Source: Bdellovibrionales bacterium (GTDB lineage: Bacteria > Bdellovibrionota > Bdellovibrionia > Bdellovibrionales > UBA1609). From it: a DNA stretch of 64,000 nt. The stretch lies in the NCBI GenBank assembly GCA_965204055.1, contig OZ241967.1, positions 834,144-898,143 of the forward strand. The letters run 5' to 3'. A program made the position numbers and the translations under genes. Shown piece by piece: positions 3,328-61,088 of the stretch. Positions within the stretch are counted from its first letter, which is position 1, and the number at the start of each line of letters is the position of its first letter. Below the pieces are notes generated by a model. The model was given only the letters and a program-made list of their open reading frames with translations, was not told where the DNA came from and ran no database searches.

Positions 3328-3635
3328 ATGTATCGCAGAAAATTCACTTCTCCTTCTGAGCAAAGTTATTTCCTGTTAGGTCCCAGAGGAACAGGAAAGT
3401 CCTTTTTTGTGAGGTGGATTTTATTCTCTATGGAGAAAGGGGAATAAAAGCGATTGAGGTTAAGCTGTCTGAAAGAATTAGGCCAGCAGACTGCAAAGGC
3501 CTCCTGGAATTTATGAAAGATTATCCTCAAGCTAAGTCTTTTTTGCTTTACACTGGCCAAAAAAGTTATATTTTAAACGATATTTTAGTTTTACCTGTCG
3601 AAAGATTTTTAAAAAAAATATCCGCTGTCTTATAA
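3328..3635 (+). pseudogene. remnant of an AAA+ ATPase (DUF4143-type) with internal deletion and frameshift
   Basis: The ATG at 3328 gives MYRRKFTSPSEQSYFLLGPRGTGKS (Walker A) and stops after ~39 codons. A second frame from 3414 encodes the family C-terminus VDFILYGERGIKAIEVKLSE...LLYTGQ. The ~300 aa normally lying between these two parts are absent. Confidence 0.6.
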
Positions 3636-5247: not shown

Positions 5248-7902
5248 TTAATCTGGCTTAAAAATCCTGTTCAAAGCGTTTCGCCATTTATCCTGTAGAA
5301 TGAGATCAAAGGTCATTTTTTGATCCTGTATTTCAATGGTTCCGGCATCTATGGATTTATGGGAATATTCTGTAAAAAGCTCAAAGAGCTTTTTCTTGTA
5401 TTCTGTGTCGGGGTTTCCCATAAGATGCTGTCCCTTTGTTTCCAGAATGGAGAAAGAGGCATTGCCAGTTTTAGATGACTCGACACAAACCAAAAAATCA
5501 GGATAGATTTTATTTTTTTGCCAGCCTTGCAAATGCCAGTCTTGCCTTTCAATAATCCTATGCCACCATTTTATGGCTGAATCCTCATCTAAATACCAAG
5601 CCACTTTTTTTTCTAAATCATTAAACTTAAATTTCTCAGTCCAAATATTTTCAAACAGGGATAGTTGCAAATTTTCGTTACTTTTCCTTCTCAATAATGT
5701 ATCTTCTCCTGATACGGAGAGATTTAAAGTTTTTGCCATTTCCCAATTCAAATCCGGATCTCCTGCGCTTACAAGTTTAAATATAATCTCATGGTTTTTC
5801 AGCTTCTCTCTGAAAATCTTTTCTGTTTTTTGGCTTATTTGATTTTGAAGATCATTTCTCAAACAATCCAGAATATGGAACCGGCTCAAATAAACTTTTT
5901 CCTTTCCGTACTTCCTCTTTAAAGAAGAGAGAGCTTTATCCACTATCTTACTTGCATCCCAAAGGTTAGGGATAATATCAGAGAGTCTTTGACACATAAA
6001 ACCAAAATCCATAGCAAAATCTTCAGGCACCTTTCCTTTTTCTCTTCCATGAAAAGAGGAAATCAGTTCTAACTGCTCTTTTATATCAACTTGTGTATGG
6101 GATATGTCCGGAACTTTTTCATTCAAATACGGATCTTGATTTAATTTCAGTTTTGACCAGTCAATAGGAAAAAGCAAATCTCTTTCATAGCTTAACTCTT
6201 TTAAGCTCTTCCCGTCTCTATGCAAAACTTTTGGCAAAAAGATTTTTAAACTCCTAAACGGCTTTCTTCTTCGGACAACAACTTCTCGAGTTAAAGGCTT
6301 ATCAATGCCTGAACTTTTTATATCTCCGGCTAAGCCATCCATTCCTTCGCCTTCCAATCCTTTTCGTATGCCTTCCACGGCTCCAGCTGTGTCCTGATCC
6401 ATACAAATCACATAACATTGATTTAAAGATTCTATACTGGTTTTTTTTGTTTCTGGCTGTCTTAAAACTCTTCCTATCATTTGCTCTATAGCCACAGGGG
6501 CTTTTGTCTTGGATAAAATGGTTAGAATATAGGCAAAAGGGCAGTCCCAGCCCTCTTTCAGAGCTTCTTTGGTTATAATATACCGGACCCTTGAATATTC
6601 AGATAGCAAATCTTCATTTTTTAGCTCGTCGTTTGTTGCGGATTTGACTTTTATCTCATCTGGATCTACGCTAAAATTATTTATAAGATATTCCCGAACA
6701 TCCTCTGCATGGATAAACTTCTTCTCTCTTTGATCTTTTCCTGTTCTTTCAACTCTTATTAACTGTATAGGGCGGACATAGCGGTTTCCTTTTTTTTGGA
6801 GCCTTTGCGTATCTTCTGATAGGCTTTCCAAGGTTTCATGGCCTTTGGCCAGAGCTTTTTTCCAGTCTTTGCTTTTTAAGTTGTAAATATTAATAGGAAG
6901 TTTGATCATTTCCTCTTTTTTTAACAACTCTCCTGAAACAGAAACCAAAACATTGCTGTGATGTTCTTTTTTATTAGGAGTGGCGGAAAGTTCCAAAATA
7001 AATCGGGGATTAAAATCCATTAAGACCCTCTTTGCTTTTTCTGTATAAGCCCGGTGGCCTTCATCAATGACAACTAAAGGTTGTATCAGCTTTAAAACAT
7101 TGCCTAAACTGTGTTTTAAGGGAATCTTTTTTAAGCCTCCGGCAAGGCTGGAGTCTATACAACTATAAGTGTCAAGATTGGGGCAGGTTTCAAGAAGTTT
7201 TTGATTGGTATGATAATCATCAATTTCCGGAAAAAAATAAGGAAATTTTCCAGAATCCCTGAATATTCTCAAGGTCTCCTTTGACTGCCTTCCAGCACTT
7301 TGAAGCATCAACAACATAATGCATAAAAAATTATCTGTGTCTTGAGGATGAAAGCTGTCGGTTTTTTGAAGGATTTTAACTTTTCGGGCGGAAGCACGAT
7401 CCAGAATTTGCCTGTAAAGGCTTTCTCGATTAGTAAGAGCTTTCAGAGTTTGTTTATAAATGGAATCGCTTGGAACTACCCATAACACAAAACCACTATT
7501 TCTTTCGAAAAAATCTGTATTGATTCTCTCAATACCTGAAGTGCCAAGCAGTGTTTTCCCTCCCCCTGTGGGAACTTTAAAGCATATATTTGGAACAGGG
7601 CGATCCATACCACTTAATCGATCTTTATGGGGGGCCGGGATCAGCTCTTTTTCTTTAGGAATAAATAAATCTTCTGTTTTAGGGATAATTTTTCTGGAAA
7701 TCAAAGGTAAAAAATTTTTTTCATTCAATTCATCCCATGCTCTTTTGCAAAAGTTAAAATCACCAGAAGTCCACGGGGAGGGCAACTGTCTTTTTTTTCT
7801 AATTCCCACCAAATCCAAAGCGTCTTGTTTTTTTTCCTTAAGAACCTTAAGGTAAGCGGACAGTTTGTCAAGAACAGCTTGTTGATAATCTTTTAACTCC
7901 AC
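5248..7902 (-). CDS. res: type III restriction enzyme, Res subunit
   Basis: SF2 helicase motifs (FKVPTGGGKT as motif I, VVIDEGHRA as motif II, SATP). C-terminal PD-(D/E)xK-like YPDFLV...ILETKG. Lies immediately downstream of mod on the same strand. Confidence 0.9.
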   Translation of the reverse strand: MELKDYQQAVLDKLSAYLKVLKEKKQDALDLVGIRKKRQLPSPWTSGDFNFCKRAWDELNEKNFLPLISRKIIPKTEDLFIPKEKELIPAPHKDRLSGMDRPVPNICFKVPTGGGKTLLGTSGIERINTDFFERNSGFVLWVVPSDSIYKQTLKALTNRESLYRQILDRASARKVKILQKTDSFHPQDTDNFLCIMLLMLQSAGRQSKETLRIFRDSGKFPYFFPEIDDYHTNQKLLETCPNLDTYSCIDSSLAGGLKKIPLKHSLGNVLKLIQPLVVIDEGHRAYTEKAKRVLMDFNPRFILELSATPNKKEHHSNVLVSVSGELLKKEEMIKLPINIYNLKSKDWKKALAKGHETLESLSEDTQRLQKKGNRYVRPIQLIRVERTGKDQREKKFIHAEDVREYLINNFSVDPDEIKVKSATNDELKNEDLLSEYSRVRYIITKEALKEGWDCPFAYILTILSKTKAPVAIEQMIGRVLRQPETKKTSIESLNQCYVICMDQDTAGAVEGIRKGLEGEGMDGLAGDIKSSGIDKPLTREVVVRRRKPFRSLKIFLPKVLHRDGKSLKELSYERDLLFPIDWSKLKLNQDPYLNEKVPDISHTQVDIKEQLELISSFHGREKGKVPEDFAMDFGFMCQRLSDIIPNLWDASKIVDKALSSLKRKYGKEKVYLSRFHILDCLRNDLQNQISQKTEKIFREKLKNHEIIFKLVSAGDPDLNWEMAKTLNLSVSGEDTLLRRKSNENLQLSLFENIWTEKFKFNDLEKKVAWYLDEDSAIKWWHRIIERQDWHLQGWQKNKIYPDFLVCVESSKTGNASFSILETKGQHLMGNPDTEYKKKLFELFTEYSHKSIDAGTIEIQDQKMTFDLILQDKWRNALNRIFKPD

Positions 7903-7964: not shown

Positions 7965-9635
7965 CTAAACCCCTATAATTTTATGAATGGCAGTTGGAAG
8001 TTGGCAAAACTGAATATTGTAATCTTTTAATAGCTCTTTTTGTGTTATATAGCTTGCCGGAGCAAAAACCAAACTGATTTTTTTTGAACCTTTACTAAAG
8101 TTTTTTACTTTTTCCGCCAAATCTAAATGCAAAGCACTTTCCTTGCTTTTTAAAAATTCCAAATTGGATTTATAAACAAGATGAAACTTATAAATTTCTG
8201 TTTCACCAATAAACCATGATGGATTGGGTTTGGAAATCATATTGAGACTTTTTCCCGTCGCTGTGTAAAAGATATATTCCGCAAGTTGTTTGTATTCTGG
8301 AAGTTTGCCTAGCAACATATTTTCTGCGTTGATCTCATCTCCCAAGGAGCAATAAGTGAAAGAACCACCTAAGCCTTTCTTTAGCTTTTCATCTTTGGCT
8401 TTTGGTCTGCCCTTTATGACCCGGCGGATCCGCTCTGCTGTAATTTTGTCCGCATAATTCTCACACTCAATAAGGATGAATTTGCGGTGGCCTCCATCCT
8501 CTTTATTCAAGTTCAAGACAGCATGGGCTGTTGTGCCGGAACCGGCAAAGGAATCCAAGATAATGGCGTCTTTTCCACCTCCAATTTTAAACAAGCGAAA
8601 CAACAGGCTTGATGGCTTGCTGTTATCGAATTTTTTTCCGCCAAATATGTCTTTTTGCTCATTTGTAGCATCAGTTGTTGTCGCTAAATCATAAAAAATG
8701 GTTCGCTCTTTGATGATTTTTAGCTGTCCGTTCAACTCATCAAGATATTTAACCTCAAAAGGAGTCCATCGGCCACTTCGCTTTTCCCAGTGAATATGTT
8801 GCTTGTCCAAGTTTAAAGGCCGTGTCCGCCAATTCCCATCTTTGCCGTCAGGGGCTTTAGGGTAAAAATCCGCGCCGTCAGGAGCTTTAATAGGATAAAA
8901 CATTGTTGGTCGATCTTCACGATAAGCGTTTGACCCCCATTTTTCTAATTTTATAAATCGGCATTTTCTTTTATTTTTTTCTTTATTAAAAAAGCTCTCT
9001 TGAATCTCTGTTTTTCGAAAATTCATGCGATATTTTTCTGTTTTTCGATAACATAGAATATAATCATGCTCTCCGGCAAAATACTCACTGTCCTGCCCTC
9101 CCCCGGCTTTTTTTCTCCATATAATCACATTGATAAAATTCTCTTCTCCAAAAATTTCATTCATTATCATTCGCAAATGATGTTGCTCATTATCATCGCA
9201 ACTAATGAAAATCACTCCATCATCAGCAAGTAATTCTCTTAATAACTGTAGCCTGGGCCACATCATGCAAAGCCATTTATCATGTCTTTCCAAATCATCT
9301 ATTCCAATGCCGTTTTGTTTCAACCATTCCTTTATTATGGGGCTGTTCACCCTATCGTTGTATTTCCAGCCCTCATTTCCGGTATTATAGGGTGGATCGA
9401 TATAAATACATTTGACTTTCCCTGAATACCTGGGCAAAAGGGCCTTCAGGGCATGAAGGTTGTCCCCATAAATGATTAGATTGTCATCTAAACTTGATGC
9501 GTGCTGTTTCCCTTTGGGTTTTCCTCGTCCAGCCGGGGAGAGTGATTTTTTTTCATCTATTTTTAACGTTCGGAAAGGAACGCCTAAATGGTGCGAATAG
9601 ATGACAGACTTCCCTTTAAAATGTAGAAACGGCAT
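7965..9635 (-). CDS. mod: type III R-M DNA methyltransferase, Mod subunit (N6-adenine, beta class)
   Basis: Motif IV DPPYNTG precedes motif I FAGSGTTAHAV, with a central variable region between them. Gene order mod-res. Confidence 0.9.
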   Translation of the reverse strand: MPFLHFKGKSVIYSHHLGVPFRTLKIDEKKSLSPAGRGKPKGKQHASSLDDNLIIYGDNLHALKALLPRYSGKVKCIYIDPPYNTGNEGWKYNDRVNSPIIKEWLKQNGIGIDDLERHDKWLCMMWPRLQLLRELLADDGVIFISCDDNEQHHLRMIMNEIFGEENFINVIIWRKKAGGGQDSEYFAGEHDYILCYRKTEKYRMNFRKTEIQESFFNKEKNKRKCRFIKLEKWGSNAYREDRPTMFYPIKAPDGADFYPKAPDGKDGNWRTRPLNLDKQHIHWEKRSGRWTPFEVKYLDELNGQLKIIKERTIFYDLATTTDATNEQKDIFGGKKFDNSKPSSLLFRLFKIGGGKDAIILDSFAGSGTTAHAVLNLNKEDGGHRKFILIECENYADKITAERIRRVIKGRPKAKDEKLKKGLGGSFTYCSLGDEINAENMLLGKLPEYKQLAEYIFYTATGKSLNMISKPNPSWFIGETEIYKFHLVYKSNLEFLKSKESALHLDLAEKVKNFSKGSKKISLVFAPASYITQKELLKDYNIQFCQLPTAIHKIIGV

Positions 9636-18002: not shown

Positions 18003-18359
18003 ATGAGTTTTGACGCTTTAAAATATGTGGAAAATTTAAGAAAAGCAGGTGTTCCAGACAGGCAGGCAGAAGCTCAGGTGCGTATCCTGAATGAAACCAT
18101 TGACTCCAACTTAGCTACTAAAAGAGATATGAAGGAGATGGAACAGAAGCTGACCAGAGATATGAAGGAGATGGAACAGAAGCTGACCAGAGATATAAAG
18201 GAGATGGAACAGAAGCTGACCAGAGATATAAAGGAGATGGAACAGAAGCTGACCAGAGATATGAAAGAGATGGAACAAAGAATTGTAATCAAACTGGGAT
18301 CTCTGCTTACAGCTGGTCTTGTAGCTCTTGTGGCTTTATCTAAACTGAACTTAATTTGA
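18003..18359 (+). CDS. DUF1640-like coiled-coil protein with C-terminal membrane anchor
   Basis: MSFDALKYVENLRKAGVPDRQAEAQV... matches the DUF1640 N-terminus as I recall it. Five RDMKEMEQKLT repeats follow. C-terminal hydrophobic helix LGSLLTAGLVALVAL. The 239-aa ORF opening at 17640 looks like a spurious 5' extension. Confidence 0.65.
   Translation: MSFDALKYVENLRKAGVPDRQAEAQVRILNETIDSNLATKRDMKEMEQKLTRDMKEMEQKLTRDIKEMEQKLTRDIKEMEQKLTRDMKEMEQRIVIKLGSLLTAGLVALVALSKLNLI
18123..18281 (+). repeat. 33-bp in-frame tandem repeat, ~4.8 copies
   Basis: AGAGATATGAAGGAGATGGAACAGAAGCTGACC is repeated head-to-tail starting at 18123, 18156, 18189, 18222 and 18255, with 1-2 substitutions. Confidence 0.95.
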
Positions 18360-38641: not shown

Positions 38642-39316
38642 TTAAGAAAAGATTTTGGGTTTAAAATTTTCCTTATTTTGAATAATAACATCGCCTGTAG
38701 CCTCAATAACGAAAAAACCCTGCTTCTCAGCTAAACTGTTTGCTTGCCTGTTGGCCTTTATTAAAAAAGCCATCGCTCCATAAATGGTTTTGTTTTTAAA
38801 TTCTGGCCACCATACTTTAAAGTTCTTAATATCCTCTGTAAACTCCCTTACATCGGCAGGGTCTAAAGTGGCTTTAACTTCCACAACCACAACTTCTTTC
38901 CCATTAACAGCAATAATATCAAACTCTGTTTTAGCATTTTTTGCATTGGTAATCACTCTTTCTACTTCGATTCCTCTTTCTTTTAATCGTTGAACCAGAC
39001 TACCTTTGACCAGGTTTTCACCCAGTTTACCCCAACGATTTCCAAAATCTCCGATAATAGCATTGATTTTTTTATCAGTTTCTTTCATTTGTTGACCAGT
39101 TTCTTTTTGGTTTTCTTGAAGTTCTTTTTGACTTTCCTGAAGTTCTTTTTGACCAGTTCTCAACTCAGCTGAAAGATTTTTTAAATATCTATCAGTTTCT
39201 TTTTGGCTTTCTTGAAGTTCTTTTTGGCCGGCAGAAAATGCTTTTAAGTTTTTTTGTGTTTCCTTTATCATTCTCCAGATTTCATCTGAAACAGGTAAGG
39301 CTGACGGGCGACTCAT
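38642..39316 (-). CDS. coiled-coil plus PD-(D/E)xK-like protein (DUF3782-like)
   Basis: N-terminal repeats GQKELQESQKE. The C-terminal EFDIIAVNGKEVVVVEVKATL pattern (D...EVK) is typical of the restriction-endonuclease-like fold. The overall layout matches the DUF3782 family as I recall it. Confidence 0.55.
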   Translation of the reverse strand: MSRPSALPVSDEIWRMIKETQKNLKAFSAGQKELQESQKETDRYLKNLSAELRTGQKELQESQKELQENQKETGQQMKETDKKINAIIGDFGNRWGKLGENLVKGSLVQRLKERGIEVERVITNAKNAKTEFDIIAVNGKEVVVVEVKATLDPADVREFTEDIKNFKVWWPEFKNKTIYGAMAFLIKANRQANSLAEKQGFFVIEATGDVIIQNKENFKPKIFS

Positions 39317-39705
39317 TATAGACTCCTTATGATTATTGGCTTTATAATATTATAAATTTTACTGAAAATCAATTCAAAAAGGTGATATGGTTGCCCAGTT
39401 TATCATTTATGCTGTTTACTTTTATAACCATAAAAATCATAAGAATAAGTAGAACCCAGGAAATAGGGACTTTTTTATCTAAAGAATTAAAAAGGTTTGC
39501 TAAAGATTCTATACTCCTATTATGCCACAGAGCTTAACTTTTGTCAAAAAAGGCCAGCTGGTGCTCTTTTAGGTGGTCTATTTTTTAGTACGGGGAAAAG
39601 GGCAATCCGTATTGTGCTGAAGTTAGGACAAAATCTTCTTGACTATTATGCAATGTATCAAAATAATCAAAAGTATGTCAAAAACTAAAATTTAAGGAGG
39701 TAATT

Positions 39706-40419
39706 ATGCAAAGGCAAGGGATAATAAGCAGAAACATAGGTTTTGTGGTGGTTTTGTTTTGCCTGGGGACAACATTTGCATACGCTCATAAGGGGGGCAA
39801 AAAAGGTTCGAAATGTCCATCGGCCAATTTGTCTGAGGAGCAAAAAGCTAGTAAGCAGGCAATGTGGCAAGCGTTTAGATCTGAAGCTGAGGGTATGAGT
39901 AAAGCCGAGAGGCGCGAAGCCAGGGCAGAGTTAAGGCAAAGGATTTTAGACATAATCCCTGAGACGGAGGAACAAAGGAACGCGCTTGAAAAATGTATGA
40001 ATCGGCACCGCAGAGATTGGTGTTCATCGATAAATTTATCTGAGGCGCAGAAAGCTCGTAAGCGGGCGATGATACAAGCATATAGAGCTGAAGTTAGGGA
40101 TATGAGTAATAAAAACGATAGGCGCAAGGCCAGGACAGAATTAGATCAAAGGATTTTAGACACAATTCCTGAGACAGAAGAACAAAGGAGAGCAATTGAA
40201 GAATGTATAAATCGTAGTCGAAGCTGGTGTCCACCGGCAAATTTATCTGAGGAGCAGAAAGCTCGTGAGCAGGCAATGATACAAGCACATGAAGCTGAAA
40301 TTAAGGGTATGACTAAAGCTGAGAGGCATAAAGCTGGTAAAAGATTAATGCAAAGGATTTTAGACACAATCCCTGAGACAGAGGAACAAAGGAGCGTGCT
40401 TGAAGGATGTATACTTTGA
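39706..40419 (+). CDS. secreted triple-repeat protein, Spy/CpxP-like (LTxxQ-type) motif
   Basis: SD AAGGAGG and a signal peptide. Three 69-aa repeats, each C-x3-NLSE(E/A)QKA...ER..A...L.QRILD.IPETEEQR...E.C. Confidence 0.6.
   Translation: MQRQGIISRNIGFVVVLFCLGTTFAYAHKGGKKGSKCPSANLSEEQKASKQAMWQAFRSEAEGMSKAERREARAELRQRILDIIPETEEQRNALEKCMNRHRRDWCSSINLSEAQKARKRAMIQAYRAEVRDMSNKNDRRKARTELDQRILDTIPETEEQRRAIEECINRSRSWCPPANLSEEQKAREQAMIQAHEAEIKGMTKAERHKAGKRLMQRILDTIPETEEQRSVLEGCIL
39814..40419 (+). repeat. 207-bp in-frame tandem repeat, ~2.9 copies
   Basis: Repeat units start at the TGT codons at 39814, 40021 and 40228. Confidence 0.9.
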
Positions 40420-50934: not shown

Positions 50935-52521
50935 ATGAAAAAAATATCTTATACAAAGTATAAAGATTCTGGTATAGAATGGCTTGGGAAAATCCCAGAA
51001 CATTGGAAAATAAAAAGGTTAAAATTTTTATTATCTAAACCATTAAAATATGGTGCAAATGAATCTGCTGAATATGACGAGCCTTCATGGCCAAGATATG
51101 TGAGGATTACTGATATAGATGAAAATGGTATGTTAAAAAAAGAAACTTTTAAATCTATTCCTAAAGAAATAGCATACCAATATTTATTGAAAGATGATGA
51201 CATATTGTTTGCTCGTAGTGGTGCTACTGTTGGAAAAACTTTTCTTTATCAAAAGTGTTATGGGCAAATTGCATTTGCTGGATATCTAATTCGTGCAAGA
51301 TTTGAAATGTCGGATAATATCCCAAAATTTATTTACTATTTTTGTCAGTCGCAAGTTTATTGGAAATGGATTAAAAATAATTCTATACAAGCTACCATTC
51401 AAAATATTAGTGCTGAAAAATATTCTAACTTATATATATCCTTGCCTGATATATATGAACAAAAATCTATTACTATCTTCCTGAATAAAGCAACTTCTTG
51501 GATTGATTCCTTGATAGAAAAAATTAAAAAATCTATCACTCTTTTAAAAGAATACCGCTTGGCTTTAATCACTTCCGCAGTCACTGGACAAATTGATGTT
51601 CGTAAATCCCAAGCACAAGAAATAACAGTTCAAGCCCAAAAGACAGAAAGACAAAAACTTGCCAACTCTTTAAAAGTTCTGGATTTCCGCTTTCGCGAGA
51701 ATAACCGCCATGTCGGCGGTGACAAAGTTGCTCTGGCTCTTGTGTCTGATCATGAATTTGCAACCAAGCTACAAAGAGATTCCCGCTTTCGCGGGAATGA
51801 CCGCCGTGTCGGCGGTGACAAAGTCGCTGTAGCTCTTGTATCTGATCGTGACTCTATGTCTAAGTCACAAAAAGATTCCCGTTTTTGCGGGAATAACAAG
51901 CTTGTTGCTAAAAAAAGATCAAAAAAGTTAGCTTCACCTATATTTAAAAAAGCTGTTTTTGGAGCAGAAATTGTTGCTCAGTTAAAAGATGATCCTCATT
52001 TTGGCAGAACAAAATTTATGAAAACCCTTTATTTGTGTGAAGCTCATTTGCAAATCCCTCTAAAAGGAGAATACAAAAGAGAAGCCGCAGGACCTTTAGA
52101 TAGTTCTATTTATACAATAGAAGGGATTATGAAAAGAAACAAATGGTTTGAGGTTGTTAAAACAGGTTCTATGTTCAAATACAAACCTTTTAAAAACCCT
52201 GATGGACATAAGCAGTATTTTAATAAATACTGGGGAGATTATACAAAGGAATTAAACCGGCTTTTATCTATTATGAAGAATTTTACAACGGAACAATCAG
52301 AAATTGTAGATACCATTTATGCCGTATGGAATGATTTTTTATTGGAAGGGAAAAAACCCTCAGTTAGTGAAATTGTTTATGAAGTAAAAAACAACTGGCA
52401 TAAAAGAAAAAAAAGATTTTCTGATAATCAACTGCAAAAAGCCATTCAGTGGATGAAACAGCAAAATCTTGTTCCTAAAGGTTATGGACCTAAAACTAAA
52501 ACTTTAGAGGAAACAAAATGA
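50935..52521 (+). CDS. hsdS: chimeric ORF: half-size HsdS, a repeat-derived linker, and a Panacea(DUF4065)-like C-terminal module
   Basis: The N-terminus (YKDSGIEWLGKIPEHWKIKRLKFLL, DDILFARSGATVGKTFLY, LLKEYRLALITSAVTGQIDVRK) is one HsdS TRD plus a conserved helix. Then 96-bp GC-rich repeats are translated as DSRFRGNDRRVGGDKVA.ALVSD. Then comes GRTKFMKTLYLCEAH...AAGPLDSSIY. The Panacea assignment is tentative. Confidence 0.65.
   Translation: MKKISYTKYKDSGIEWLGKIPEHWKIKRLKFLLSKPLKYGANESAEYDEPSWPRYVRITDIDENGMLKKETFKSIPKEIAYQYLLKDDDILFARSGATVGKTFLYQKCYGQIAFAGYLIRARFEMSDNIPKFIYYFCQSQVYWKWIKNNSIQATIQNISAEKYSNLYISLPDIYEQKSITIFLNKATSWIDSLIEKIKKSITLLKEYRLALITSAVTGQIDVRKSQAQEITVQAQKTERQKLANSLKVLDFRFRENNRHVGGDKVALALVSDHEFATKLQRDSRFRGNDRRVGGDKVAVALVSDRDSMSKSQKDSRFCGNNKLVAKKRSKKLASPIFKKAVFGAEIVAQLKDDPHFGRTKFMKTLYLCEAHLQIPLKGEYKREAAGPLDSSIYTIEGIMKRNKWFEVVKTGSMFKYKPFKNPDGHKQYFNKYWGDYTKELNRLLSIMKNFTTEQSEIVDTIYAVWNDFLLEGKKPSVSEIVYEVKNNWHKRKKRFSDNQLQKAIQWMKQQNLVPKGYGPKTKTLEETK
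51683..51894. repeat. 96-bp tandem repeat (~2.2 copies) built from GC-rich palindromes
   Basis: ATTTCCGCTTTCGCGAGAAT at 51683, ATTCCCGCTTTCGCGGGAAT at 51779 and ATTCCCGTTTTTGCGGGAAT at 51875. The first two are followed by ACCGCC-N5-GGCGGT. The same ATTCCCGC...GCGGGAATGAC core is present in the MITEs at 49054 and 57095. Confidence 0.9.
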
Positions 52522-53861: not shown

Positions 53862-54432
53862 TCTTCACGGGTTTAATTCCCCGTGGCTTGCCACGCTCCT
53901 TATAAGGCGTTAGCCTTATTATATGGGGAAGTATATTTATAAAAGTCACAATGTATCGATTTTGCTTTATCATTTAGTATGTCCGATAAAGTATAGAAAG
54001 CTTGTGTTGTCGGATAAAGTTTCGCTGGAATTAAAGTGGATATGTAAAGAGATTAGTCAGCGTTATGAGATGGAGTTTATAGAGATAGGTTTAGATGGGG
54101 ATCATGTTCATTTTTTGATTCAGTCTGTGCCGATGTATAGTCCTACACGGATTTGTCGGATAGTGAAGAGTTTAACGGCTCGTGAGTTATTTAGGCGGTG
54201 TCCTGATGTGAAGAAGTTTTTGTGGGGTGGTGAGTTTTGGACGAAGGGATATTTTATAAGCACGGTGGGTCATCATGGTGATGAGCAGAAGATCAGTGAT
54301 TATGTGAAGAATCAAGGTAATAAGTCAGGTTATAAGAAGATTTACAGTCAGCAACTGCGGTTGTTTTGAGAGCACAGATATTGGCGATAGACAACAGTGA
54401 TACCCCGTGGCTTGCCACGGGGAGGCTTCATT
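53862..54432 (+). mobile_element. IS200/IS605-family element (tnpA only)
   Basis: Subterminal hairpins CCCCGTGGCTTGCCACG (53879-53895) and CCCCGTGGCTTGCCACGGGG (54403-54422) flank a Y1 transposase gene. No terminal inverted repeats, as expected for this family. Boundaries are approximate. Confidence 0.8.
53923..54369 (+). CDS. tnpA: IS200/IS605 family Y1 (HUH) transposase TnpA
   Basis: 148 aa with YHLVCPIKYRK, HUH motif in GDHVHFLIQ, and catalytic Tyr region TKGYFISTVG. Confidence 0.9.
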   Translation: MGKYIYKSHNVSILLYHLVCPIKYRKLVLSDKVSLELKWICKEISQRYEMEFIEIGLDGDHVHFLIQSVPMYSPTRICRIVKSLTARELFRRCPDVKKFLWGGEFWTKGYFISTVGHHGDEQKISDYVKNQGNKSGYKKIYSQQLRLF

Positions 54433-54519: not shown

Positions 54520-54784
54520 AGAGAATAAGCGAAAGTTCTATCTCTCTTGAGAGTGGGATAGAAAGTGAAGTATCTGGGCCTACCTCTGTAGGAACAGGAG
54601 TATCAATAGATGAAACCATTGAACTTTCTCATCTGATAGATATTTTAAATGAGCGGTTTGGAACAAGCTTTACACCGGCAGATCAACTGTTCTTGGATTC
54701 CATTAAGGAAGATGCGGTTGCTGATTCTAATTTAAGAGAGGTAGCAATGGCTAATCCGATGGAAAATTTTGGATATATTTTTTT
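54520..54784. repeat. 265-bp direct repeat, copy 1 (target-site duplication of the IS1634-like element)
   Basis: AGAGAATAAGCGAAAG...GGATATATTTTTTT reads identically to 56736-57000 by eye. It ends exactly at the left IR. Confidence 0.95.
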
Positions 54785-56735
54785 CCTGACTTCAGCACAA
54801 CGCAATGCAATAAATGAGTGATTTCCGATATTTACAAATTTTTGGGGGAACACATTTTTAAGATTTAGTTCAAGAAGTGGAGATAAATTTAGACACTCTT
54901 TTAAGACCTAAGGCCTCGTATATGGATCTTATCTCTTGTGTGCTTTTAGAGGGCATACGATAAAGATTTTTGTTTGCGTCCTCTATAAGGCTATATTGAT
55001 CTCTTTTTAAAATCTCTCTCATCTGCCTTATGCTGAAGTTTAATCCTCTTTGTTCCATCCGATACTTCATAGTATAGGAAAGAGAGTAAGCTAAGAAGCA
55101 TATAGCTATATGGGACTCTATTCTTTTCCTCTTCCAATGGTAAATGGGTCTCATCTTAAGGTTGTGTTTGCACACACGAAAAGCCTCTTCTATCTTCCAA
55201 AGTCTCCTGTATCGGGTCAGTATCTCTTGAGGGGTTTGCTCTGTTCTTATGTTGGTTATTACTCCATGCAGACCATCCCACTGACTATCTTCTTTTATCT
55301 TTTGTTCGTTTAATGTAGCTTTTGTCTTTTGAACTGTGACATACTTTTTTGTTCCATAATTAGAGATAAGGCTTTTTATAGGAATTTGGTTTTTCTTTAC
55401 TTTTTTCATCAGTCTTTCAATGAGTCTTAGTCTATCGGACTTGTTCTTCTTGGCTCTCTTCTTAGAGTAGCTGACAATCAGTCTTCTTTCCTTATGCTCA
55501 AACTCCTTTATCCAATGAAACTCATTGGCCACAACAGCGGGTTTAAAGTCTTGGTTTAATATCTCCTCTTTTTTAGTTTTAGAAAGAGTTTTTAGTTTAC
55601 AGGCCACTACATACTGAATACCCTCTTCTTCCATAAGCTTAAGGTTTTTTTCATTAAACATAGCTCTATCAGCGACTAATACCGCCTTTTTAACAGTGAA
55701 TCTTTGTTTTAGCTTTTTCACTGTGGAGATAAGGGTAGAACCTTCGCTTGTGCTTCCTGGAAAAAGCTCATAGCTTAGAGGGTGGCCTTCTTGGTTGGTG
55801 ATAAGGGCTAAGACGACTTGAGTCTCTTTAAACTTTAAGTCTTTGCTAAAGCCGAACTGTCTTAGGTCATCTTCTTCAAAGCTTTCAAAGTAAAGGGTGG
55901 TGACATCAAAGAAGAGGACATCTACTTCTTGGTTAAAGAGGCTGAGGGTGTTTTTAGCTACTGTGTCTTTTACTTGGTCTATTCGGGGGTGAAGTCTATC
56001 CATCATTCGATACATCTGATCTAAGTGCACCTGTTCGTTAAAGTCTTCTTTTAAAGTCTCTACAGTTTTTCTTTTAGAATCAGGATGAGCTACACGAGAA
56101 AGGACGCAGTATTTTAAAATATCGTTCCACTGCTTATCTTTTTTAGTGTTTTGTATGAGAGTGTGGAAGCCTAACTGTTCATAGACAGCCCCACATACTC
56201 CTTTAATGCCATGATGAACACGTGCTTTTTCGTATGGTTTTTTAAGAGAGAAAAGGGAAGGAGACTTGGACTTTTTCTTTTGGTTCTGGTTCTTAGTTTT
56301 TTTGTTTAAAGGATCTTTGCTGTAGATGATCTCAGCCATACCGGGTAAAGCGGGTTGGCGATCATTGCAGAGCTTTATAATCATTCTTTGTGATATTTTT
56401 TCTAAAGAGGAAATGACTTCTGGTTTTGAAGAAGAGCCCACAAAATGTATTGTTTTATGTTTTGTTTTTAAACCTTCTCGGACAGACTCCACAATCCGAA
56501 AGGATTTAATTTTACGGTCTTTGTTTTTCCCTGAGATTTTTGTAGTAACTTTTACAAACATATTTTTACAGTGCCAGAAGAGATATAGGGTGTAAAGGTC
56601 TGGGAGTGGACTACAAGTGGTGTTTTTAGTATATTTTACCCTTCAAAACTACATGAAAACAGCCTGGCGGTGCATCAAAAACCCTAAAAAACATCAAAAT
56701 ATTTTTTTAACACATAGCGTTGTGCTGAAGTCGGG
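54785..56735 (-). mobile_element. IS1634-like (IS4 superfamily) insertion sequence, 1951 bp
   Basis: Terminal IRs CCTGACTTCAGCACAACGCAATG (54785-54807) and the reverse complement of 56713-56735, CCCGACTTCAGCACAACGCTATG (21/23 match). Single transposase ORF. Flanked by the 265-bp direct repeats. Confidence 0.85.
54870..56561 (-). CDS. IS1634/IS4-family DDE transposase
   Basis: 563 aa. N-terminus MFVKVTTKISGKNKDRKIKSFRIVESVREG resembles the IS1634-type start. DDE regions are VLFFDVTTLYFES, VLVADRAM and LWKIEEAFRVCKH. Confidence 0.85.
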   Translation of the reverse strand: MFVKVTTKISGKNKDRKIKSFRIVESVREGLKTKHKTIHFVGSSSKPEVISSLEKISQRMIIKLCNDRQPALPGMAEIIYSKDPLNKKTKNQNQKKKSKSPSLFSLKKPYEKARVHHGIKGVCGAVYEQLGFHTLIQNTKKDKQWNDILKYCVLSRVAHPDSKRKTVETLKEDFNEQVHLDQMYRMMDRLHPRIDQVKDTVAKNTLSLFNQEVDVLFFDVTTLYFESFEEDDLRQFGFSKDLKFKETQVVLALITNQEGHPLSYELFPGSTSEGSTLISTVKKLKQRFTVKKAVLVADRAMFNEKNLKLMEEEGIQYVVACKLKTLSKTKKEEILNQDFKPAVVANEFHWIKEFEHKERRLIVSYSKKRAKKNKSDRLRLIERLMKKVKKNQIPIKSLISNYGTKKYVTVQKTKATLNEQKIKEDSQWDGLHGVITNIRTEQTPQEILTRYRRLWKIEEAFRVCKHNLKMRPIYHWKRKRIESHIAICFLAYSLSYTMKYRMEQRGLNFSIRQMREILKRDQYSLIEDANKNLYRMPSKSTQEIRSIYEALGLKRVSKFISTS

Positions 56736-57000
56736 AGAGAATAAGCGAAAGTTCTATCTCTCTTGAGAGTGGGATAGAAAGTGAAGTATCTGGGCCTACC
56801 TCTGTAGGAACAGGAGTATCAATAGATGAAACCATTGAACTTTCTCATCTGATAGATATTTTAAATGAGCGGTTTGGAACAAGCTTTACACCGGCAGATC
56901 AACTGTTCTTGGATTCCATTAAGGAAGATGCGGTTGCTGATTCTAATTTAAGAGAGGTAGCAATGGCTAATCCGATGGAAAATTTTGGATATATTTTTTT
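56736..57000. repeat. 265-bp direct repeat, copy 2
   Basis: Starts immediately after the right IR and reads identically to 54520-54784. Confidence 0.95.
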
Positions 57001-58388: not shown

Positions 58389-60380
58389 TTAAATATTTTT
58401 TTGTATATACTCTAAAACCCTTGGATTAAATTCAAATACAGCTTCTACTTTAAAACCAGAGGAGTAGTTTGGCCTGTCCCTACAGTAGTCACTGCAAAAA
58501 CAAGCTTGATTTTTATCAGGTCCGCAGGTTTTTTTATTGGTTTTTATTTCCACATGGCCATGCTTGCTTCCTGATTGCATAACCACAATAGCTCCTTCTG
58601 GGATCTGAGTTGTGTCATCTTGAAATTTTTTAGCTTGTTCTTCTGATATTTTATTAAACAAGGGAATGTTTTCGATACTGCCATCGTCTTTTTTAATAGG
58701 AAAGGAAGTTAAAGACTGATTTAAAAGATCCCATGCTTCACATTTTTTCCGGACAGATGGGTCTTCAATGTTTTTAAAGCTTTCTTTGTTTTGGCCGTCT
58801 AAGTTAAGAGCACATAGGGCAGAAGGAAATACAAAACTGTTTTTACAAATATTGTTTTTCTCAGAAGGAGAAGTGAATTTGTTCACACATTGGCCGTAAC
58901 TGTCTTTACTTTCGTTTTTTTGGGTGTCTTCACAGTATTTTGTTAAGTATTTATGCACTGTATTCATAATAGCACTTGTTACATGGCGCATACAGTTAGC
59001 TGTAGAATTTCCTATCTCCTTTTTACCAGAGCATTTATTAACAGGAGGGGATTCACTTTTTTTTACCTCACCCCTGGGTTTACACCCTCTTTTGCAGGCA
59101 TCATTGCTCTGGCATTTACAAGTAGAATTATCAAAAACAGTTTCTGAAAAATAATTTATCATGTCTTTGTATGCTGGATTTGGTTCTAAAAGTGTTTGTA
59201 TATTTATTATTTCCTTGAAAGTGGATCCTGTGTTGGTATCGGGGCAGTTATTTTCGTCGCAAACAGGAGCACTGGCCTCCGTTTGCGCAGGTGGGGGCAA
59301 AGAAACTACAGGAGACGGGGTAGAAGTTGTGCTTTTTGCTGACCTTGGAGGTGTATCATCTGCTGTTTGATTTAGCTCTAATTGGGTAGAATTAATTTCC
59401 TTTACTCTGTTCCTAACATTAATACATCCCGCCCAGGACTTCCTTTTTCCTTTACAATATTGGTTGATAATATTTTCTAAAGATTTTTTGTAAGACGCGT
59501 AATCTGCTGGGTTAATAGAAGTTCCTTGGGAAGCCTGATAACATCGTTTAGATAAGGATCGCACTGGGTTAATAGAAATACATTTGTTGTTAAAAACCAC
59601 TCCACATTGAAAGGTGTTTTCGCGGTTTTCGCAATTTCTGCCATAAACTGGACAAACTTTTCTTTTTAATTTTGAAGAATAAGCTGTATCCCTTATTACC
59701 CCTCCAATTAAACATTTTCCAGAGGTAGAGGCTAAGGCAGATGGGATAAGAAAGTTAAAAATCGTAGTTTTTGCTTGAAGAGGGAATAATCCTTCATCAA
59801 CATTTCTTTCAAATTGGAGATAACTTTGTTTTATCTTTTTAATATAGTTTTCACGGGAAGAAGGAGAAAAAGAGCTATAATCACTTGAAGAAAGCAGTTG
59901 GACAGGTTTCCATATTATTTTTGCTTGGAATTTTTTTGAGTTGTCGCCATTTCCTGTTTTTTGCTCCTTATCACATAACTTCAGCATTCTTTTAAACTTT
60001 TTTTGTTTTTTTTTGGAAAGTATTTTTTTACTTAGATTCAAAATCTCTGTTGGTTCAGCAGATTCGTAATAATTATATACACAATACATTATAAAATGCT
60101 CGCCTGAAAAATCCAATACTTTATCGTAAATTTTTACTACTTCTTTTAAAAACTTTTTTCGATTTGTTTGACTGATTTTATTTTTTGACTCTAAAGATTT
60201 TAATTCCTTCATATAATGGCAAATTTTTTGATAAACTGTGTTTTCGTAATTGTTATAGTTTAGGCTTTGCCTTGAAGTTTTTAAATCTGTGATATAAAAA
60301 TCAGGTTTTTTATAAACAGCAGAGTGCGTAGTAGGAAGGAATAGCCCATAGAAAAATAGAATAATACTTAAAAGTTGCAT
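58389..60380 (-). CDS. large secreted Cys-rich protein; C-terminal region possibly a papain-fold amidase
   Basis: Signal peptide MQLLSIILFFYGLFLPTTHSA and more than 35 Cys residues. The C-terminal ~200 aa contain STANCMRHV / SALCALN and PEGAIVVMQSGSKHGHVEI, a Cys...GHV pattern reminiscent of NlpC/P60, CHAP or Tae4-type enzymes. This domain assignment is speculative. Confidence 0.55.
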   Translation of the reverse strand: MQLLSIILFFYGLFLPTTHSAVYKKPDFYITDLKTSRQSLNYNNYENTVYQKICHYMKELKSLESKNKISQTNRKKFLKEVVKIYDKVLDFSGEHFIMYCVYNYYESAEPTEILNLSKKILSKKKQKKFKRMLKLCDKEQKTGNGDNSKKFQAKIIWKPVQLLSSSDYSSFSPSSRENYIKKIKQSYLQFERNVDEGLFPLQAKTTIFNFLIPSALASTSGKCLIGGVIRDTAYSSKLKRKVCPVYGRNCENRENTFQCGVVFNNKCISINPVRSLSKRCYQASQGTSINPADYASYKKSLENIINQYCKGKRKSWAGCINVRNRVKEINSTQLELNQTADDTPPRSAKSTTSTPSPVVSLPPPAQTEASAPVCDENNCPDTNTGSTFKEIINIQTLLEPNPAYKDMINYFSETVFDNSTCKCQSNDACKRGCKPRGEVKKSESPPVNKCSGKKEIGNSTANCMRHVTSAIMNTVHKYLTKYCEDTQKNESKDSYGQCVNKFTSPSEKNNICKNSFVFPSALCALNLDGQNKESFKNIEDPSVRKKCEAWDLLNQSLTSFPIKKDDGSIENIPLFNKISEEQAKKFQDDTTQIPEGAIVVMQSGSKHGHVEIKTNKKTCGPDKNQACFCSDYCRDRPNYSSGFKVEAVFEFNPRVLEYIQKNI

Positions 60381-60466
60381 TTTATAATATTAACATTTTT
60401 TTATATTTTCAGGGTATTTTACAGGTTAATGGATAAAATAAGTAAAGAAATAAAACTAAAGTCTTA

Positions 60467-60915
60467 GTGCTAAATGCTCTTTTTGGTCGCATTCATCACA
60501 GGTCGCTTCTTCCCTTCGAATCCTGCATTATTGAATTAATTTATGGGGTGGCAGGATGTCGCCTACTTTGTTCGTTCGCATCCAGCTCACTCACTGCGCA
60601 GGCCCCCCTCAGTCGCTCAAAAAATCGTCAATGATTTTTTGTCCTGTGCTAAATGCTCTTTTTGGTCGCATTCATCACAGGTCGCTTCTTCCCTTCGAAT
60701 CCTGCATTATTGAATTAATTTATGGGGTGGCAGGATGTCGCCTACTTTGTTCGTTCGCATCCAGCTCACTCACTGCGCAGGCCCCCCTCAGTCGCTCAAA
60801 AAATCGTCAATGATTTTTTGTCCTGTGCTAAATGCTCTTTTTGGTCGCATTCATCACAGGTCGCTTCTTCCCTTCGAATCCTGCATTATTGAATTAATTT
60901 ATGGGGTGGCAGGAT
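60467..60915. repeat. 179-bp perfect tandem repeat, 2.5 copies, each carrying the last 15 nt of tRNA-Gln
   Basis: Units start at 60467, 60646 and 60825 and look identical by eye. ATGGGGTGGCAGGAT (complement of the tRNA 3' end) occurs at 60543, 60722 and 60901. Only the last copy continues into the tRNA body. Confidence 0.95.
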
Positions 60916-60972
60916 TCGAACCTGCGAATGACAGAACCAAAATCTGTTGGCTTACCACTTGCCGACACCCCA
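60901..60972 (-). tRNA. tRNA-Gln (anticodon UUG)
   Basis: Reverse complement is TGGGGTG TC GGCAAGTGGTAAGCC A ACAGA TTTTGGT TCTGT CATTC GCAGG TTCGAAT CCTGC CACCCCA T. The cloverleaf folds by hand and closely parallels the E. coli tRNA-Gln layout. CCA is not encoded. Confidence 0.9.
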
Positions 60973-61088
60973 TTAAGGAAAATATCTGTGATTTTAAAGA
61001 AAAAATCAAGCTTTTTTGCTGTTATTGTCTAAAGGGCAAAAAAGGAGGGGATTAAAACCTCGTTTTATTTCAGAACTTCATTTCAAAA

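Follow-up and report, generated by a model that had tools for sequence, protein, structure and literature searches.

The closest described systems to the locus reported here are the tRNA-linked repeats (TLRs) of Escherichia coli, first described by Egan and Landy in 1978 (PMC8144298). E. coli K-12 carries 22 TLRs, distributed over ten loci in tRNA or rRNA operons with one to five at each, and in every one of them 18–19 bp at the 3' end exactly match the 3' end of the directly preceding gene (PMC8144298). Three 5S-linked TLRs (RrA/B/F) bind Hfq and CsrA; transcription and processing of the 5S-linked TLRs have been shown experimentally, with the repeated 3' end proposed as an RNase E processing signal, and otherwise no function is known (PMC8144298). 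The window analyzed here, a 64,000-nucleotide (nt) stretch of a Bdellovibrionales bacterium (assembly GCA_965204055.1, contig OZ241967.1, positions 834,144 to 898,143), contains a perfect tandem array of a 179-bp unit directly downstream of a tRNA-Gln gene. This array is probably built from a TLR-type unit, the Bdellovibrionales counterpart of the E. coli repeats, rather than being the scar of an integrated element. The unit is conserved between genomes, ends in a copy of the 3' end of the local tRNA, keeps its pairing pattern, and occurs in a series of copy numbers, with no integrase at the loci examined.

In E. coli MG1655, the sequence downstream of tyrV forms a 178 bp × 3.1 array with 95% identity, the units of which end in AATCCTTCCCCCACCACCA, the last 19 nt of tRNA-Tyr starting from the T-loop. 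The 3' terminus annotated for the rttR RNA coincides exactly with the CCA that closes the first of the repeated tRNA-Tyr ends. The E. coli unit also carries GGGGAAGGAT, the complement of the copied end, and has a closing stem (GGGGAAGGAU with AUCCUUCCCC) around three hairpins. Further studies of the E. coli TLRs, or RtT, are reportedly those of Rudd in 1999 and of Bosl and Kersten in 1991. Although known since 1978, the E. coli TLRs are still without an accepted origin or function, and the term is scarce in the literature searched.

The repeat unit in the window and in other Bdellovibrionales

Tandem Repeats Finder reported one array at 60467–60915, with a period of 179 bp, 2.5 copies, 100% matches and 0 indels. 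The tRNA-Gln(UUG) gene was placed by ARAGORN on the minus strand at 60900–60973 (Rfam tRNA model RF00005, 60901–60972, 61.4 bits, rounded to 61), and its last 15 nt (60901–60915) constitute the first of three copies of a core. The reverse complement of these 15 nt, ATGGGGTGGCAGGAT, was found exactly three times, with starts at 60543, 60722, and 60901, against an expectation of 0.05. In the tRNA orientation the order is the 5' part of the tRNA, core, D (76 nt), E (88 nt), core, D, E, core, D and unique DNA, where 15 + 76 + 88 = 179; the 61-nt GC-rich core of E has two exact copies and none elsewhere in the 64-kb window. The original prediction, made from the letters of the window, had correctly described the perfect array, its three 15-nt tRNA-Gln cores, its identical copies and the order and arithmetic of its parts, and had noted that no integrase lies between the cores; none lies nearby either.

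A 20-mer from E was scanned against one genome per species (185,579 species), and more loci were fetched through SpoVG homologues. The 20-mer matched three genomes, all of them Bdellovibrionales metagenome-assembled genomes (MAGs) with one tRNA-linked locus each. At two of these loci (L001 and L002) E is directly downstream of tRNA-Gln, and at the third (L003) it is downstream of tRNA-Ser(GGA). Locus L022, reached through a SpoVG homologue, has one full unit after tRNA-Gln, and L027 and L028, two independent assemblies of one species from different samples, each have a perfect 181-bp × 2.1 array after tRNA-Gln. The unit is therefore found after tRNA-Gln in four other Bdellovibrionales genomes (L001, L002, L022, and L027/L028) and after tRNA-Ser in a fifth. 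As in the window, where unit 1 begins at the base directly after tRNA-Gln and on the same strand, the units in L001, L002, L022, L027, and L003 follow their tRNA immediately.

All units share a common order of parts, comprised of an AT-rich variable spacer, the start of D (D-start, GCAGGATTCGAAGCGAAGGAGCGACC), hairpins P1 and P2, a linker (GAGCGACTGAGGGGGG), hairpin P3 and the tRNA 3'-end copy. P3 is a long, near-invariant hairpin with tandem G·A pairs, formed by GCCUGCGCAGUGAGUGAGC, a 5-nt loop and GCGAACGAACGUAGUAGGC. The linker and P3 together form a near-invariant segment of 60 nt, which is the most conserved portion of the unit, above the D-start, and points to a particular protein or RNA as partner. 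Across the first four genomes, a stretch of 30 nt shows no change. The D-start GCAGGATTCG is the exact complement of CGAATCCTGC in tRNA-Gln and is kept after tRNA-Gln even in genomes with no other part of the unit there.

The terminal tRNA 3'-end copy of every unit starts in the T-loop. It is identical to the upstream tRNA over 15 nt in the window and, in L001, L002, and L027, over 18 nt (CGAATCCTGCCACCCCAT). The L003 unit ends in CGAATCCCTCTCTCTCCGCCA, which corresponds to the 3' end of tRNA-Ser and not of tRNA-Gln; it shares 12 identical nt (CCCTCTCTCTCC) with the adjacent tRNA-Ser gene, and its 21-nt end reads as a canonical Ser 3' end. The tRNA-Gln locus of the same MAG (L020) retains the D-start alone. 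The presence of a Ser 3' end on the unit after tRNA-Ser indicates that the unit was moved or copied between tRNA loci.

The tRNA-Ser locus itself (L003, 4164–4340, minus strand) is a mosaic, with a truncated tRNA-Ser 5' fragment just upstream. In the tRNA-Ser that ARAGORN identified there, the T-loop and the 3' end (GAGGCTTCGTTTTCCCTCTCTCTCCA, no CCA) are non-canonical, and the copy beyond the repeat unit is canonical with CCA (CGAATCCCTCTCTCTCCGCCA). The end of the L003 unit, CGTAGTAGGCGA, resembles the start of the tRNA-Ser variable arm; a derivation of P3 and of the unit end from this arm (CGTAGTAGGCGA compared with GCGTGTAGGCGGGA) was considered on a likeness noticed by eye and was dropped. 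In L022, the anticodon-arm segment of tRNA-Gln (ATTTTGATTCTGTCATTCGCA) and the promoter-like motif are partially duplicated just upstream of tRNA-Gln (3395–3425). In L028, a 5.5× long-read assembly, the tRNA-Gln (7335–7406, equivalent to L026 4835–4906) has an anticodon-loop T-run of three residues where four are expected, and ARAGORN returned tRNA-???; as the tRNA-Gln of L027 (8466–8538) is intact, the shortfall is probably a homopolymer error.

Predicted RNA fold and comparison with known systems

A covariance model (R1) was built from five units, and base pairs were counted on six distinct units. R1 scored all full units at 163–199 bits and also detected truncated copies. RNAalifold and single-sequence folds gave a closing stem (P0) between the D-start and the downstream core, of which the T-loop and T-stem portion is paired and the acceptor-strand tail, CACCCCAU, is not. 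Hairpins P1, P2, and P3 lie within P0.

The tRNA-proximal unit of the window (unit 1, 179 nt, 60722–60900, minus strand, as are all parts described here) was delimited by Tandem Repeats Finder, R1 (60722–60886, 183.5 bits, E = 8e-55) and the fold. It opens at its tRNA-proximal end with a 16-nt AT-rich spacer, followed by the D-start GCAGGAUUC as the 5' strand of P0 (60876–60884), P1 (60822–60860), P2 (60797–60820), a conserved G-run linker, P3 (60740–60782) and core copy 2 (60722–60736), which provides the 3' strand of P0 and the unpaired CACCCCAU tail. Unit 2 (60543–60721) is 100% identical to unit 1 by Tandem Repeats Finder and matches R1 at 60543–60707 with the same 183.5 bits; its P0 5' strand is at 60697–60705, P1 at 60643–60681, P2 at 60618–60641, P3 at 60561–60603 and core copy 3 at 60543–60557. 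The array closes with a truncated unit 3 of 76 nt (60467–60542), which contains the spacer, the D-start and P1 without its final 3 nt and gives a weak R1 match (60401–60528, 32 bits).

Standard pairs occupy 94.6% of the cells across the six units, as compared with 32–48% when the partner column is slid. Five pairs are changed on both sides, a number reached by one of 500 shuffles, and the covariation score is 0.112 versus 0.062 (0 of 500 shuffles). The compensatory pairs include two in P1 and two in P2, and in L022 both G residues of one tandem G·A pair are changed to A. G:U or U:G pairs are present on the tRNA strand in P0, P1, and P3; these would be A·C mismatches on the opposite strand and so favor an RNA on the tRNA strand. 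The fold of the window unit has a free energy of −52.6 kcal/mol and a z-score of −3.5 on the tRNA strand, compared with −1.7 for the opposite strand. Rfam searches of the array and L001 at permissive E-values returned only tRNA, plus chance noise at the level of miRNA models.

Several known RNAs and elements were considered for the unit and rejected. A group II intron domain V remnant in P3, RNase P-like or signal recognition particle-like motifs and a retron msr/msd were discounted from inspection of the sequence, in which neither a suitable pairing nor a neighboring reverse transcriptase gene was seen, and had no Rfam match; the array was ARAGORN-negative for transfer-messenger RNA (tmRNA), including a permuted form. 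A palindrome-associated transposable element (PATE) of the IS200/IS605 type was dropped, because such elements make no target duplication.

The resemblance to the E. coli TLRs extends over most of the architecture. In both, the unit lies directly downstream of a tRNA gene on the same strand, measures 178 bp (E. coli) or 179–181 bp, and occurs in variable tandem copies, one to five per E. coli locus and 0, 1, 1.5, 2, or 2.5 in Bdellovibrionales. In both, its 3' end copies the upstream gene from the T-loop (19 nt, AATCC...CCA, in E. coli and 15–18 nt in Bdellovibrionales), a shared body is joined to different 3' ends at different tRNA loci, and an internal complement of the copied end closes a stem around three hairpins with the acceptor-strand tail unpaired. 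The copy linked to tRNA-Gln lacks the CCA of the E. coli copy because the Bdellovibrionales tRNA-Gln gene encodes none. The two differ in that the Bdellovibrionales unit belongs to a different phylum, has no conserved small open reading frame (ORF) like tpr, is 100% identical between copies in the window as opposed to 95% in E. coli, and, by the E 20-mer, occupies one locus in each of three GTDB carriers rather than ten loci as in K-12.

A small peptide like tpr was sought among the minus-strand ORFs within the units and rejected, as these are of at most 20 aa (one 27-aa ORF spans the truncated unit and flank), and the 20-aa ORF that was compared has, read by eye, no counterpart or start codon in L001. 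The dismissal of the array-crossing ORFs as artifacts by the original prediction was reasonable for the plus-strand ORFs, which are antisense to the tRNA and built of repeats, and agrees with the L001 comparison on the minus strand.

At the level of sequence, the RtT model (RF00391) matched neither the window at E ≤ 5 nor L001 at E ≤ 10, with four matches of 133–138 bits in the E. coli locus (L014) as a positive control, and R1 found nothing in L014. The unit has the defining architecture of a TLR (position after a tRNA gene, a 3' end equal to that of the upstream gene, one to five copies per locus) and, with no match in either direction, lies outside the E. coli sequence family. RNAs from tRNA 3' external transcribed spacers (3'ETS, e.g. 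3'ETS-leuZ) are similarly derived from a trailer and need the tRNA promoter and processing, as the Bdellovibrionales unit presumably does; unlike it, they are short, unstructured, unrepeated, pair with small RNAs and have no tRNA 3'-end copy at their end.

Unrelated sequences with a shared length, T-loop breakpoint, local-tRNA 3' end, closing stem and copy variation suggest that the architecture is selected or arises by a shared mechanism, and that it is no enterobacterial accident. It recurs outside the enterobacteria, in a distant phylum. The Bdellovibrionales family adds comparative data missing for the E. coli family, namely covarying helices, a near-invariant hairpin and copy states of 0, 1, 1.5, 2, and 2.5. 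Rather than a new principle, it offers a structured and comparatively tractable set for working out the nature of TLRs.

A more far-reaching proposal is that TLR-type units are a general class of tRNA-end-mimicking RNAs, independently evolved or anciently shared, whose genes arise and disperse through a dedicated mechanism of copying the adjacent tRNA 3' end from the T-loop, and that the Bdellovibrionales unit, rather than being inert repeat DNA, functions as an RNA with a specific partner. This extension is tentative and unlikely. The copying might proceed, for example, by mobilization in trans, or by recombination or templated repair that uses the universal T-loop sequence as its anchor.

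Copy number, proposed mechanism and alternative explanations

The loci compared fall into a series of states. No unit sequence at all is present in L019 and L023; the D-start alone is found in L017, L018, L020, and L024, and in degenerate form in L016; L015 has D with a truncated P1 and no E; L022 and L003 have one unit; L001 and L002 have one unit and a partial second with differing end points (close to 1.5 copies); L027 and L028 have two units; and the window has two units and a 76-nt partial (2.5 copies). Units are 100% identical within arrays and 70–93% identical between genomes. Recent amplification, which the original prediction had listed among its options, is supported.

The closest relative is L015, with a 92% identical SpoVG and the same gene order, HtrA-AstB-SpoVG-tRNAGln-664aa-kinase. 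There, one D lies between tRNA-Gln and the unique flank shared with the window (TAAGACTTTAGTTTTATTTC...); the junction of this single D is that of truncated unit 3 (...GCAC/TAAGAC), and D differs from the window D only by TTT in place of GC in the D-start. Because D and flank match, the window is longer by exactly 2 × 179 bp (358 bp), and the absence of E from L015 indicates that its gain or loss was recent. The simplest account of both states would be a 1.5-copy ancestor of the L001/L002 type that preceded them, in which unequal homologous recombination between the two 91-bp core + D direct repeats would have yielded a product with two E segments (window) and a product with none (L015). Upstream of the tRNA, L015 (4307–4380, compared with window 61020–61088) has ∼75 bp extra between spoVG and the tRNA, a stretch that duplicates a hairpin or terminator-like segment (GAGGG..TTAATCC..CCCTTTTTGCCCTTTAGGCAAT).

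A putative tRNA promoter, TTGATT-17 nt-GATATT, was read from the sequence at 60981–61009 on the minus strand (a consensus scan gave no score); a promoter-like motif, read in the same way, is kept upstream of tRNA-Gln at all related loci, and no comparable motif precedes the repeat units. As a terminator scan found no terminator-like site on the tRNA strand inside the array, transcription from the tRNA-Gln promoter would be expected to read through it, with the tRNA being excised. The P0 stem of each unit would then display a 3' end resembling that of a tRNA, to be recognized by the enzymes that process tRNA 3' ends, and the unit may be released as a discrete structured RNA of about 165–180 nt with its 3' end set at the core copy, by analogy with the annotated E. 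coli RttR, which ends at the CCA of the tRNA-Tyr-derived repeat. Unit number would change by unequal recombination.

Several points weigh against a TLR-type unit expressed in this way. Only six distinct full units are available, the covariation rests on four to five pairs in P1, P2, and P0, the Watson-Crick pairs of P3 and most of P0 never vary, and the structure was partly derived from the same sequences on which it was scored. Given the small sample, the invariant P3 and this circularity, the evidence for an RNA made in the tRNA direction is good but not conclusive. Furthermore, P0 is not formed at the same columns in the Ser-linked copy (L003), transcription and processing of the units are deduced from sequence, and the proposal does not account for the gain of the 3' end of the local tRNA or for the route to tRNA-Ser. 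Perfect identity of the copies is equally expected from tandem integration of a circle or from assembly error; the 2.5 copies of the window rest on one assembly, as exact-sequence searches with the SpoVG and AstB of the window retrieved no record and none of the three loci found with the E 20-mer is the window locus.

Of the alternatives, the one that survives best descends from the original prediction, which had taken the duplicated tRNA 3' ends as att-like sites and the array as the scar of serial integration and deletion, with E as an attP arm, or as multimers of a 179-bp circle. In its present form, a miniature non-autonomous integrative element, comparable to a cis-mobilizable element (CIME), would be served in trans by an integrase acting on the core from the T-loop to the 3' end, and the array would result from tandem integration of the 179-bp circle or its multimer. 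This is unlikely. Like the attL/attR repeats of tRNA-targeting integrative elements (tyrosine integrases) and of CIMEs, the unit is bounded by direct repeats of the tRNA 3' end from the T-loop and is patchily present among close relatives, L015 resembling an "empty" site; tandem accretion is possible in principle, and perfectly identical tandem copies would follow from it. The tRNA-Ser copy also has Ser-specific flanking repeats, the proximal of which differs from the canonical distal one, as with element-supplied 3' ends.

However, the unit has neither integrase nor cargo, and no integrase was found in the flanks at any locus examined within about 2.5–6 kb (Pfam, NCBIfam, precomputed annotations). 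Genes at the related loci are instead uvrB, spoVG, pgk, a thiolase, a peptidase and similar, and near the window array the only recombinases are those of IS1634 and IS200 elements, 4–6 kb away (Pfam, NCBIfam). The search for E next to an integrase in related genomes, which the original prediction had proposed, produced only tRNA-linked sites, in just three of the 185,579 species genomes, and no attP defined by an integrase. The E 20-mer had 0 matches in viral contigs, an 18-mer from E matched ten loci in metagenome contigs, all by chance with no flanking similarity and no tRNA, and the unit compared by blastn with phage and plasmid collections gave nothing beyond one 30-nt AT-rich chance match.

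The internal features of the unit point the same way. Its ∼165 nt of conserved covarying hairpins and strand-specific G:U pairs point to an RNA and not to recombinase arm sites; D is found again after the last core in the Gln arrays, an arrangement that simple core-by-core integration would not predict; and the D-start is a widespread native tRNA-Gln trailer even without the rest of the unit. With E conserved after tRNA-Gln in at least four other genomes between housekeeping genes, the relatives essentially show what the original prediction had named as contrary to its reading, E in single copy as an ordinary conserved flank of tRNA-Gln with no mobile element. The serial-integration and circle versions are thereby disfavored, and only the absence of E from L015 and the relocation to tRNA-Ser keep the att-site reading from outright rejection. 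A duplicated tRNA 3' end alone is thus no proof of an integration site. A miniature inverted-repeat transposable element or other small transposon fits no better, given one locus per genome for the invariant 20-mer in the three GTDB genomes and no further copies in the 64-kb window.

It is quite unlikely that the array is instead a cis-acting device at the level of DNA or transcription, either a trailer that pairs the D-start with the tRNA T-arm for maturation or termination, or a protein-binding array that controls the 663-aa gene downstream. The exact complementarity of the D-start to the tRNA, its retention after tRNA-Gln without the rest of the unit, and the location of the array, which has the tRNA on one side, a gene of the same orientation on the other and no terminator separating the two, would be in keeping with such a role. 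The downstream gene varies, however (uvrB, a repetitive extragenic palindromic (REP)-like element, the 663-aa ORF), and conservation is highest in P3 and the linker, not in the D-start. Moreover, the annotation of the E. coli analogue is that of a discrete RNA with its end at the repeated core, and 5S-linked TLRs are experimentally transcribed and processed (PMC8144298).

Very unlikely is a real unit with a copy number in the window that is an assembly artifact, in which a perfect 179-bp repeat was over- or miscounted. Such an error would explain the 100% identity of copies counted from a single assembly, but the equivalent perfect two-copy array in two independent assemblies from different samples makes a pure artifact unlikely in general; there are also 1.5-copy states in two further genomes, and the window exceeds L015 by exactly a whole number of periods. 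Finally, a step from 1.5 to 2.5 copies through an IS1634-type insertion with a 179-bp target duplication and subsequent loss of the insertion sequence (IS), with no unequal crossing-over, is highly improbable: although the IS1634 element 4 kb away has a perfect 265-bp target duplication, no IS remnant is present at any unit junction, clean IS loss is rare, and recombination between the 91-bp repeats covers both the gain in the window and the loss in L015.

Genomic neighborhood

The window array is surrounded by SpoVG, AstB, a histidine kinase and the 663-aa ORF. The latter (58389–60380) directly follows the array in the orientation of tRNA-Gln, has a hydrophobic N terminus, is Cys-rich and has no Pfam or NCBIfam match; a counterpart of 664 aa adjoins the locus in L015.

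The IS1634-family element occupies 54785–56735, with its transposase ORF at 54870–56561 on the minus strand (NCBIfam NF033559, 366 bits). It is bounded by perfect 265-bp direct repeats (54520–54784 and 56736–57000), an unusually long target duplication, and interrupts an ORF whose C-terminal residues are present on both sides. Adjoining it at 53923–54369 is an IS200/IS605-family TnpA (Y1 transposase), which also has a weak match to a REP-associated tyrosine transposase.

The window also has repeated REP-like hairpins (GGATTCCCGC-TTTC-GCGGGAATGAC) at 51682–51873. The same type of hairpin is inserted beside tRNA-Gln or the repeat unit in L002 (2240–2275 and 2436–2470), L016 (4462–4490), L017 (4440–4470), L022 (3685–3712), and L027 (about 8905–8935); its presence in both D copies of L002 suggests homogenization or a recent duplication. 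Elsewhere in the window, five overlapping copies of a 66-nt repeat are found at 33-bp spacing (18090–18287), and several repeat families with periods of 21 bp and roughly 207 bp lie at 39076–40418.

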